A stretch of 46,870 bases of DNA from an uncultured Candidatus Saccharibacteria bacterium (GTDB lineage Bacteria; Patescibacteriota; Minisyncoccia; Phycocordibacterales; UBA2100). The translations under genes were made by a program, and so were the position numbers. Each line of letters opens with the position of its first letter. Positions within the stretch are counted from its first letter, which is position 1. The notes beneath the pieces were generated by a model. It was not told the origin of the DNA. It did not search any database and was given only the letters and a program-made list of their open reading frames with translations. Location: contig CAZPQI010000003.1 of the NCBI GenBank assembly GCA_964589005.1, positions 1-46,870 of the forward strand, written 5' to 3'. Of this stretch, positions 6,608 through 34,052 are shown piece after piece.

Positions 6608-7192
6608 ATGAATGATACGAAAAAAAAAGTCGTGGTTTTATCCGGTCCGAGTGGTAGTGGAAAAAACAGCGTGCTACAAGCCGTAATAGATAGATGTAAA
6701 AACTGTGTACGTTTGGTTACCGCTACTACCCGAGCTATTCGTGACAATGAAAAGCACGGAGAAGATCATTATTTCTTGAGCAAAGACGAATTTCTTACAG
6801 GAATAAAAGACGGTACGATACCAGAATATTGGCATGCAGTTGAAACAGATCGTTATTATGGGACGTATCTTCCTGATCTCGAAGAGAAGTTTTCAGAAGG
6901 AAAAATTGTAGTGACAGAAGTGCAAATTGAGGGCATGAAGTTCATGAGGAAAGAGTTTGGAGCGCTAAGTATTTTTGTTACAGCAGAATCACTCGAAGAA
7001 CTCGAGGTTCGTATCCGTAAGCGCCAACCAGATATATCCGAAGAAGAAATTCAGGAACGTTTACAGCAGGCGGAGAAAGAAATTAATGAATACGCAAAAG
7101 AGTACGACTACACATTAGTTAACAAGCATGGAAAACTGGAAGAAACAATTAGTGAAGTAATGGACATTTTACGTAAAGAACAGTATCTTTAG
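6608..7192 (+). CDS. gmk: Guanylate kinase
   Basis: LSGPSGSGKNS, TTRAIRDNEKHGEDHYF, YYGT. Confidence 0.9.
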   Translation: MNDTKKKVVVLSGPSGSGKNSVLQAVIDRCKNCVRLVTATTRAIRDNEKHGEDHYFLSKDEFLTGIKDGTIPEYWHAVETDRYYGTYLPDLEEKFSEGKIVVTEVQIEGMKFMRKEFGALSIFVTAESLEELEVRIRKRQPDISEEEIQERLQQAEKEINEYAKEYDYTLVNKHGKLEETISEVMDILRKEQYL

Positions 7193-7337
7193 TCAATAAT
7201 TTACAAATTTGGCACATTTTGAATGAAGCAAAGAGCGCAAGCGACTATGCTGAATTTATGTCCCAATTCTTTCATTTACAAAAGAAAGAATTGCTGGACC
7301 GTTGTAGAACTGCATACAAATTTGTAAATATTGAATA
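7190..7337. mobile_element. MITE-like foldback insertion: about 19-bp inverted arms around a 107-nt core
   Basis: tcaataatttacaaatttg (7193-7211) / caaatttgtaaatattga (7317-7334); core ends TTGGCACATTT and TAGAACTGCAT are shared with the insertion in tmRNA. Confidence 0.65.
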
Positions 7338-27947: not shown

Positions 27948-27994
27948 ATGCAAAATGCACCCTCGCCTAAAGCGGCTGGGTGCATTTTGAATAT
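27948..27994 (-). terminator. Hairpin/terminator downstream of tmRNA
   Basis: caaaatgcaccc...gggtgcattttg inverted repeat. Confidence 0.65.
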
Positions 27995-27996
27995 TG

Positions 27997-28510
27997 TGGA
28001 GATGGCGGGAATTGAACCCGCGTCCATGAAAGTCTGCAAGAATGCGTCTACAAAGTGTAGTTTACTCTAAGTTTAAATATAGTGTGTAAAGAGTAAACAA
28101 AACCACACCATTAGGAGTTGCACAGTTGGCACATTTCGTTGTTACTTCACAAAAAATGTCATTACGCCATATTATAATATGACTCAATCCATTTTTTGCT
28201 CGTGCCTAGAACTGCATCCAACTGTGCAACTCCTAAATATATCGATTTCCTTAATTTAAATAACGAAGCGGATCAAGAACGTTATCGATTTCGAAAGTTT
28301 GACACCGCGTTTGCTCTATCGAACGTCAGGCAAGGCGATGGTCGCTTAGGCGGTTACGCGTAAGCGAAGCCGAAATCCTTCATCTGTAAAGGTGAGAGAA
28401 CTCCGCGTGTAAGTTTATTTACACTTATGGTTTGAGTATTTTTTAAGGAAGTATACTCACTTCCACTTTGCACATAAACACAGGGCTTCCTGTCGAATCT
28501 AGTCACCCCC
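27997..28510 (-). ncRNA. ssrA: tmRNA, 514 nt including a 126-nt insertion; tag (A)VNKLTRGVLSPLQMKDFGFAYA*
   Basis: 5' GGGGGTGACTAGATTCGAC; 3' GGACGCGGGTTCAATTCCCGCCATCTCCA with G3.U70; tag ORF 28422-28354 after ATAAGT; adjacent to smpB. Confidence 0.93.
28111..28236. mobile_element. MITE-like foldback insertion inside tmRNA (perfect 19-bp inverted arms)
   Basis: ttaggagttgcacagttgg / ccaactgtgcaactcctaa; core motifs shared with 7190-7337. Confidence 0.75.
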
Positions 28511-33967: not shown

Positions 33968-34042
33968 CCGCCTATAGCTCAATTGGTCAGAGCATCTAGC
34001 TTATATCTAGAAGGTTTCTTGGTTCGAGTCCAAGTGGGCGGA
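33968..34042 (+). tRNA. tRNA-Ile (anticodon TAT)
   Basis: Acceptor CCGCCTA/TGGGCGG-A, D arm GCTC/GAGC, anticodon arm TCTAG-CTTATAT-CTAGA, T arm CTTGG-TTCGAGT-CCAAG. Confidence 0.9.
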
Positions 34043-34052
34043 CAGCGTTAAG

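Follow-up and report, generated by a model that had tools for sequence, protein, structure and literature searches.

The window analysed here, a stretch of 46,870 nt from contig CAZPQI010000003.1 (assembly GCA_964589005.1) of an uncultured Candidatus Saccharibacteria bacterium in the order Phycocordibacterales, contains two foldback structures. One lies directly behind the guanylate kinase gene gmk, in the spacer before adk, and the other lies inside the gene for transfer-messenger RNA (tmRNA). Both carry the 11-nt motif TTGGCACATTT (7209-7219 and 28126-28136) followed, in the same order, by TAGAACTGCAT (7305-7315 and 28207-28217), and the pattern GGCACATT-N(60-90)-TAGAACTGC matches twice in the window compared to 0.00 expected from 100 shuffles. 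A first-pass annotation of this DNA had described a two-copy foldback element in which a shared core is enclosed by unrelated inverted arms, and had suggested that the core inserts at the apex of palindromes or, alternatively, that an inverted duplication arises when it inserts or excises. The motifs and the inverted arms are indeed present at these sites, but the element has many more than two copies. Both foldbacks belong to what is probably an anciently mobile and since retained family of ~130-nt hairpins, spread through the order and seated at the 3' ends of genes, which we call family A.

Across the 821-kb assembly of this organism (coded G000; C-numbers denote its contigs and other G-numbers its relatives), the exact pattern occurs in five copies, each with different arms, so that the genome search proposed as a check in the first-pass annotation had a positive outcome. 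An nhmmer profile seeded with four cores and run through four iterations at E 1e-3 or better extended this to 43 copies, and a covariance model built from 39 family-A copies (R1) recovers the identical 43 loci plus four weak echoes on the opposite strand. With the gmk-adk copy included, family A totals at least 44 copies here. By hand count these are scattered over 24 contigs without forming arrays. The best core identity between any two copies is only 0.87, and there has therefore been no recent burst. Among close relatives, R1 matches 19 of 41 genomes (7/10 of the same genus, 16/24 of the same family) with 0–19 copies each, compared to 46 R1 matches in this genome, so that copy number runs from 0 to 46 within one genus. 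In an evenly drawn, order-wide sample of 151 genomes from 132 genera, where at most 22 candidates per genome were scored and copy counts are lower bounds, 47 genomes from 40 genera have a match. Rfam 15 matched the tmRNA and a tRNA in the window and nothing for family A, and five further family-A copies searched at E up to 1 gave chance-level matches only. None of the titles and abstracts retrieved on enterobacterial repetitive intergenic consensus (ERIC) elements and stop codons, or on repeats or structured RNA in Patescibacteria, the candidate phyla radiation (CPR) and Parcubacteria, describes the family; the main text of 2026 preprints on non-coding mining does not mention Patescibacteria or CPR, and their supplements might list such a cluster.

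The family-A unit is a single rod. When 39 copies with 20-nt flanks were folded together with RNAalifold, 35 pairs were obtained, 33 of them with compensatory double changes. The outermost, basal helix, P1 (15 pairs + 2), is formed by the arms; it is followed by short helices beside the boundary motifs, by a pairing of an A-run with a T-run, and by an apical GTAT/ATAC hairpin. Pyrimidine-rich internal loops are conserved inside the core, and the loop sequences are kept across the order. The boundary motifs themselves lengthen P1 by a few pairs; by eye, three extra pairs that switch from GCA/TGC to GTA/TAC carry the helix into them. In an alignment of 78 copies from this genome and its relatives, fitted to the R1 model and to that extent favouring the structure, 89.5% of cells were paired compared to 59.0% after shuffling and 33–45% when the partner strand was slid. 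The covariation score was 0.756 vs 0.208, and double changes were seen in 34 of the 35 pairs, including all 15 pairs of P1. Measured in 43 copies, P1 is mostly 16–19 bp long; it spans 16–21 bp in 28, 11–14 bp in seven and 9 bp or fewer in eight. Tandem pairs of copies also occur (C6:33069-32862 and C5:32167-32894 in G000, C16:9695-9943 in G006 and C11:2226-2456 in G005), for example two behind the S7 gene rpsG, and the P1 of the second copy is usually poor or missing.

The first-pass annotation had called this layout the reverse of a MITE (miniature inverted-repeat transposable element), and that description is apt: the ends are variable and the core is conserved, with mean identities of 0.39 and 0.57. 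Its statement that the arms are completely different goes too far. The arms share a weak positional consensus across copies, and 10 of 741 arm pairs agree at no fewer than 11 of the 15 positions, where column shuffling yields 4.2 such pairs and reaches ten in 9 of 500 runs. There is also a weak correlation between the similarity of arms and that of cores (Mantel r 0.14; 29 of 2000 permutations). At one and the same gene end, the arms differ among species while their pairing is kept. Arm diversity in family A is compensatory change in a helix.

The copy inside the tmRNA gene (copy 2) is a full element, antisense to its host. Its arms pair at 17 of 17 positions, or 19 of 19 with the adjoining GG/CC, and as RNA it folds into one rod on either strand (−43.5 kcal/mol, z −7.2, for the + strand; −58.6 kcal/mol, z −9.0, for the − strand). 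The tmRNA gene reaches its length of 517 nt because of this ~130-nt insert, which is apparently also why ARAGORN makes no call for it; in the alignment to the Rfam model RF00023, a 148-nt insert stands where the model has 16 positions. It interrupts one side of a helix belonging to the 3' pseudoknot region, the partner strand being intact, and in the Rfam alignment both the tRNA-like domain and the tag reading frame look intact. The tmRNAs of five genomes of the same genus, 372–392 nt long, align on both sides of the insert and contain neither arm nor core. Comparison of orthologous loci had been put forward in the first-pass annotation as a way to find empty alleles; with both arms missing from the empty site in 5/5 relatives, it supports neither of the mechanisms offered there.

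A similar picture is seen behind tuf, where the spacer to rpsJ is ~185 nt here vs 27–75 nt in five relatives. In metagenomic data, one of 80 tuf loci has any copy, ~415 nt past the end of tuf as judged from its position after rpsJ, and the closest of the 80 is 92% identical, no nearer than the genus relatives. The copies in tmRNA and behind tuf are lineage-specific. The earlier view holds in so far as the element is non-coding and present in many copies, has a conserved interior between inverted arms that differ from locus to locus, and has entered new sites over time.

We then compared gene ends with the complete genome of a sister species, G008, which was fetched as 35 pieces and in which orthologues of 34 upstream genes were sought by tblastn. 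Twenty-four loci, element-free in G008, were usable. The other ten comprised two without a tblastn match, three with the element in G008 too, two at piece ends, one with too short a flank, one with a weak match of 41% (gmk) and one with 44 extra codons. The 14 nt behind the stop codon, that is, the left arm, do not resemble the G008 flank beyond chance (119 matches vs a null of 113 ± 5.9, P 0.18). The G008 flank does resemble the DNA past the right arm, with a summed local score of 239 vs 182 ± 9.8 that none of 500 permutations reached. Plain junctions with respect to G008 can be read behind mraZ and behind the genes that precede C2:20033 and C2:5006; in the case of the HU gene and gyrB, the native terminator persists downstream of the element. 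With the arms missing from relatives and the native flank taken up again behind the right arm, the arms come in as part of the element. Species differ in having or lacking the whole unit, both arms included, and the arms are neither pre-existing target palindromes nor inverted target duplications. A TA on both sides was seen, by eye, in only about a third of the copies, and no consistent duplication was observed.

The gmk-adk copy (copy 1) has a more complicated history. R1 aligns only its two ends (26.5 bits, E 1.5e-4; 88 nt vs 73 in the model), and the interiors of copies 1 and 2 do not align; the boundary motifs alone do. The core that the first-pass annotation took to be common to both foldbacks is thus reduced to these motifs, and the interior of copy 1 is instead a nested copy of a second repeat, family B. 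Outside this nested copy, CGTTGT is joined straight to AGAACTGCATAC, and the A interior has therefore been deleted. We infer from the sequence that copy 1 is a decayed family-A copy that lost its interior and was later entered by family B. Family B is ~80–85 nt long, has 9–10 genome copies by blastn and nhmmer (window match 7219-7315, E 6e-26; further sites in Table 1), and forms two hairpins, the first with a GNRA-type loop and the second with compensatory changes. Two of its copies are nested in A elements near the same A motif, the window copy and one in a full A element at C36:3670. No family-B copy was found in the sister genome G008, and the family has no Rfam match.

Family A usually has its P1 starting at the stop codon of an upstream gene in the same orientation. 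Counting the 43 loci and the gmk-adk copy, 34 of 44 copies follow a same-strand open reading frame (ORF) of 60 aa or more, and 28 of these 34 have the stop codon 12–26 nt before the core, which places it at the base of P1. P1 begins 0–3 nt from the stop codon although a spacer of 20–60 nt exists. Five copies have a convergent ORF on the other side; four of them also have a same-strand ORF and one is solely convergent, which gives an orientation bias of 34 to 1. Copies in relatives likewise follow an ORF in 10/13 and 17/20 cases in two sets. By hand count, the 34 element genes end in TAG 18 times, TAA 14 times and TGA twice, and the 508 long open frames genome-wide end in TAG 156, TAA 291 and TGA 61 times. 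By eye, GTAG or GTAA precedes or starts P1 in ~16/39 copies, the TAG usually being paired with CTA and serving as the stop. Replication direction was considered as the cause of the orientation and rejected: copies flip with their genes inside contigs, and in the complete genomes G008 and G170 it is inseparable from gene orientation.

The neighbouring genes are syntenic housekeeping genes. A Pfam family could be assigned to 26 of the 34 upstream proteins, which include EF-Tu, S7, L11, L7/L12, S9, HU, GyrB, DnaN, SSB, class II ribonucleotide reductase (RNR), MreB, RNase III, GreA, ATP synthase beta, RpoD, MraZ, FtsW, PilC (twice), YebC and guanylate kinase. Several of the same gene ends are occupied in different species (Table 1). 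The element separates a gene's stop codon from the native 3' flank, shares that gene's orientation, and recurs at the same gene ends in different genera.

Table 1. Features of the two foldbacks and related loci. Locations are window positions unless a genome or contig is named.
Feature	Location	Strand	Basis or remark
gmk TAG stop	7190..7192	+	directly 5' of copy 1 left arm; ORF 6608-7192, Pfam Guanylate_kin, E 3.8e-34
P1 left arm, copy 1	7193..7210	+	pairs with 7318-7334, one indel
Putative 5' remnant of A core, GGCACATTT	7211..7219	+	R1 aligns ends only
Nested family-B copy, 80 nt, two hairpins	7220..7299	+	blastn and nhmmer
Putative remaining A core, CGTTGT abutting AGAACTGCATAC	7300..7317	+	read against A consensus GGCACATTTCGTTGT...AGAACTGCAT
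P1 right arm, copy 1	7318..7334	+	pairs with 7193-7210
tmRNA gene, 517 nt	27994..28510	-	Rfam RF00023, 100.2 bits
Full family-A element, copy 2	28108..28239	+	R1 114.8 bits, E 2.5e-24; antisense to host tmRNA
P1 left arm, copy 2	28111..28127	+	perfect complement of 28220-28236
Core, copy 2, ~92 nt, helices P2-P5 and pyrimidine-rich internal loops	28128..28219	+	nhmmer model positions 1-91
P1 right arm, copy 2	28220..28236	+	pairs with left arm
Other family-B sites	G000 C13:13037, C14:8949, C36:3670, C29:6720, C5:8216, C17:5725, C2:30531, C1:99111, C25:8189		
Element after rpsG (S7)	G000, G008, G003, G029		
Element after rnc	G000, G008, G003		
Element after RNR	G000, G003, G017, G024, G023		
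Element after atpE	G003, G014, G019, G022		
Element after atpD	G000, G003		
Element after rplL	G000, G003		
Element after M23 peptidase	G000, G008		
Y1 transposase-like genes	G000 C18:16754-17490, C9:9929-10642, C5:1838-2551, C1:18713		
Solo copies of Y1 palindromes	C1:101264, C1:108577, C18:568		

How might such an element work? We propose that it entered its sites as small mobile DNA and that it may owe its retention to co-transcription with the upstream gene, which would give a long 3' or intercistronic hairpin. Such a hairpin might attenuate read-through or end transcription, and might serve RNase III or 3' exonucleases as a barrier or a site of processing, so that the upstream message is protected or processed. 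In a lineage in which no Rho was found, it could thereby set how much is made of the upstream product, usually the more abundant one. The arms may differ because only their pairing matters: selection would favour compensation of a single change in P1, or template switching would copy it to the other side of the palindrome. In 27/43 cores, an A-run and a T-run of at least four flank the central hairpin, and long perfect central stems were seen by eye in ~9 copies. The upstream products are mostly needed in excess over that of the next gene (atpE, atpD, rplL, mraZ, dnaN). The continuous ~22-bp duplex with conserved loops would suit RNase III, and in three species the element follows the RNase III gene itself. 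The Rho RNA-binding domain (Rho_RNA_bind) was not found in 5/5 genomes searched, and on this ground Rho-dependent termination through the C-rich, G-poor loops was rejected.

Family A resembles intrinsic (bidirectional) terminators and intercistronic RNase III or stability hairpins in the succession of A-run, hairpin and T-run found at the centre of 27/43 copies, and it sits where the sister species has terminators: G008 has plain terminators at 8/25 of these gene ends, and G000 keeps a terminator after the element at 2/25 within the ~80–90 nt scanned, plus gyrB in a longer scan. It differs from terminators in having ~90 nt of conserved sequence and an outer clamp helix, in stems that are not GC-rich and in its presence/absence history as a repeat, and a simple terminator scan did not call it in two copies tried. 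We also noted that the G008 terminators behind HU, gyrB, rplK, rplL, rpoD and rpsI (L171, L145, L166, L164, L147 and L154), at sites where G000 has the element, are very regular, each with an A-tract, a GC hairpin and a T-tract a few tens of bases past the stop codon.

Several observations weigh against the proposal of a retained, once-mobile 3'-end hairpin. Its basal helix is poor in some copies, eight of 43 falling at 9 bp or fewer, and the same terminator scan called no central hairpin in the two copies tried. A strong terminator would also be damaging at several of the sites, which are within operons. The sense strand shows no preference for G-U pairs (among 2698 cells, 79 with G-U, 102 with A-C and 182 with other mismatches); pyrimidines account for 67% of its loops and G for 16% of its core. 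The opposite strand folds better in 73/78 copies with RNA parameters and in 78/78 with DNA parameters, which is not what a simple sense-RNA element predicts, and this conserved strand asymmetry keeps a DNA-level or antisense reading alive. As for mobility, no enzyme was found for family A (Y1, TnpB and IS110 were examined; DDE families were not searched for), nor any target-site duplication or near-identical pair among family-A copies, so that mobility is deduced from presence and absence between diverged species. The relatives used for this comparison, G008 and the tmRNA set, are too diverged to place exact junctions or a duplication. Finally, the copy at C19:5329 has a 9-nt run in common with the G008 flank, and the tuf left arm looks, by eye, like the flank in G001.

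To place family A among known repeats, we compared it with several kinds. Families of the ERIC and NEMIS (Neisseria miniature insertion sequence) type make a TA duplication, and in an ERIC study, elements at or beside stop codons reportedly prefer one orientation. ERIC (Yersinia, enterobacteria) and NEMIS/Correia (Neisseria) resemble family A in being ~100–155 bp long, multi-copy, non-coding and next to coding regions. They are described as co-transcribed and as forming long RNA hairpins that alter mRNA stability (PMC3733652, PMC1590033), and a title cited in PMC1590033 has NEMIS RNA processed by RNase III. Yet ERIC and NEMIS have conserved terminal inverted repeats of 15–30 bp, whereas the terminal helix of family A is its most variable part and the interior is conserved; family A also shows no consistent duplication and keeps to the same gene ends in different genera. 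Judged as a MITE, it is small, non-coding and multi-copy with insertion polymorphism (43 loci; absent in relatives at tmRNA, tuf and others), as a MITE should be, but it lacks conserved 15–30 bp terminal repeats, its terminal helix being least conserved. No autonomous relative with the same ends and a transposase was found: the first-pass annotation had suggested looking for a transposase ORF between the motifs, and there is no ORF in any of the 43 copies, DDE families not having been searched for. The other near kin are the repetitive extragenic palindromic (REP) sequences and their mosaic clusters (BIME), which go with REP-associated tyrosine transposases (RAYT, of the Y1 type). According to PMC3733652, these lie downstream of genes, mostly between co-directional or convergent ORFs, are thought to act through RNA, and in the GTAG class often have ends that supply a TAG stop to the neighbouring ORF. 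Family A is like GTAG REPs in its TAG stops (18/34 element genes vs 156/508 genome-wide), but REPs are 20–40 bp long with a conserved stem, while family A is ~130 nt long with a variable stem and does not co-occur with Y1. The nearest known kinds are hairpin MITEs (ERIC, NEMIS) and REPs, and family A lacks three of their defining features: conserved terminal repeats, short conserved palindromes and a link to RAYT.

Could family A simply be selfish DNA of the hairpin MITE or REP type, found wherever a gene-dense genome tolerates insertion? The range of copy number within one genus, the copy lying antisense in a tmRNA gene and the existence of decayed, tandem and nested-insert copies are all what such an element would produce, and GTAG-tagged REPs likewise give TAG stops to their neighbours (PMC3733652). 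Hairpin-forming repeats of sponge mitochondria are a known case of small palindromic invaders of compact genomes (PMC2800124). For these and the comparable repeats of Rickettsia, insertion takes place in genes and in intergenic DNA, with no stop-codon anchoring or orientation rule reported, unlike family A. The palindromic elements of Rickettsia are said to be small repeats that have invaded a compact genome, including structural RNA genes. A purely selfish element does not readily account for occupation of the same gene ends in different genera and families, for structure kept in diverged copies and loop sequences conserved order-wide, for a P1 that starts 0–3 nt from the stop codon when 20–60 nt of spacer is available, or for an orientation of 34 to 1, and we consider this explanation unlikely.

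Another possibility is that the bottom strand, as single-stranded DNA (ssDNA), folds into a site for strand-specific recombination, priming or transposition, comparable to attC sites or to the ends of HUH elements. attC sites are imperfect palindromes directly after ORFs, in a fixed orientation, that keep structure over sequence and of which one strand folds better. Family A is a palindrome of similar size after ORFs, also in fixed orientation, and its bottom strand is the more stable one in all 78 copies folded with DNA parameters; Watson-Crick pairing is kept, with no G-U preference. It differs from attC in that there are no cassette arrays (a search for an integron integrase was not made), the upstream genes are core syntenic genes and the copies are dispersed, and its conserved motifs are internal while the outer ends are the variable P1.

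A candidate enzyme is at hand, since the genome contains four Y1 (HUH) transposase-like genes of 217–226 aa with intact HUH and YxxxNP-type motifs. However, each of the four has flanking sequence of its own, unrelated to family A, in the form of a perfect palindrome on either side or of a 16-bp terminal inverted repeat. The arrangement is RAYT/IS200-like, and the hairpin differs from paralogue to paralogue; solo copies of these palindromes also occur (Table 1). In the order sample, counted by hand, a Y1 gene is present in 31/47 element-positive vs 60/104 element-negative genomes, and the high-copy genomes G045, G112, G084, G164 and G052 have no Y1 match. Within the genus, Y1 is found in 6/7 genomes with at least three copies vs 0/4 with 0–1 copies, these genomes being related to one another. 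With no order-wide association, and with unrelated palindromes of its own, Y1/RAYT was rejected as the mobiliser. TnpB (PF07282) and IS110 (PF01548) were likewise not found in G000, G007, G008 and G020, and G013 gave one sub-threshold match to each. A role as an ssDNA site alone seems rather improbable to us.

An antisense role fares worse. Each copy might encode, or be the target of, an antisense RNA to which the arms confer specificity for its own gene; the antisense RNA folds better in most copies, the arms are locus-specific and cover the stop codon, and there is one promoter-like match inside copy 2, though on the sense strand. But a conserved antisense promoter was not found, the arms are engaged in pairing with one another and thus not available as guides, and a cis-antisense RNA would be complementary whatever the arm sequence, so that specificity explains nothing. 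We regard this as very improbable. The palindrome-apex or inverted-duplication model of the first-pass annotation fares worst and is already largely refuted: it could draw on the near-perfect arms that abut a conserved interior, on the flank resemblances at C19:5329 and tuf and on the perfect short palindromes present in the genome beside the Y1 genes, but the armless empty tmRNA sites, the G008 flank comparison, and arms that share a positional consensus and differ between species with pairing kept leave it hardly any probability.

Beyond the proposal of a retained 3'-end hairpin, it is tempting to speculate along two bolder lines, of which one or the other could hold, though we think it doubtful. 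Either family A is a stop-codon-anchored "punctuation" hairpin, which would make it a new class of cis-element in ultra-small bacteria that lack Rho, or its bottom strand is a strand-specific ssDNA site for mobility or recombination. In the punctuation version, a P1 of free sequence but fixed length (~17–19 bp) might serve as a ruler from the stop codon to the conserved pyrimidine-rich loops, and a protein would read the loops and then cut or end the transcript at the stop codon. In either version, the element would both spread and persist at given gene ends beyond the lifetime of a genus.

The gene-expression signals of CPR bacteria are almost unstudied, and the organisms are not culturable alone. 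Present in about a third of the order's sampled genomes, and behind tuf and genes for ribosomal proteins, ATP synthase, RNase III and replication, family A is a candidate major signal for mRNA ends or operon tuning there, and the combination of a hypervariable basal stem with a conserved interior offers a natural test of whether palindromes are kept up by selection or by template-switch correction. As a marker, the family helps to annotate gene ends and to explain failed tmRNA calls. If it should be merely selfish, it would illustrate that small repeats invade essential RNA genes even in minimal genomes.

Elsewhere in the window, ARAGORN calls a tRNA-Ile with the anticodon TAT at 33968-34043 on the + strand. 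Reading of AUA by a tRNA-Ile with this anticodon is uncommon in bacteria.

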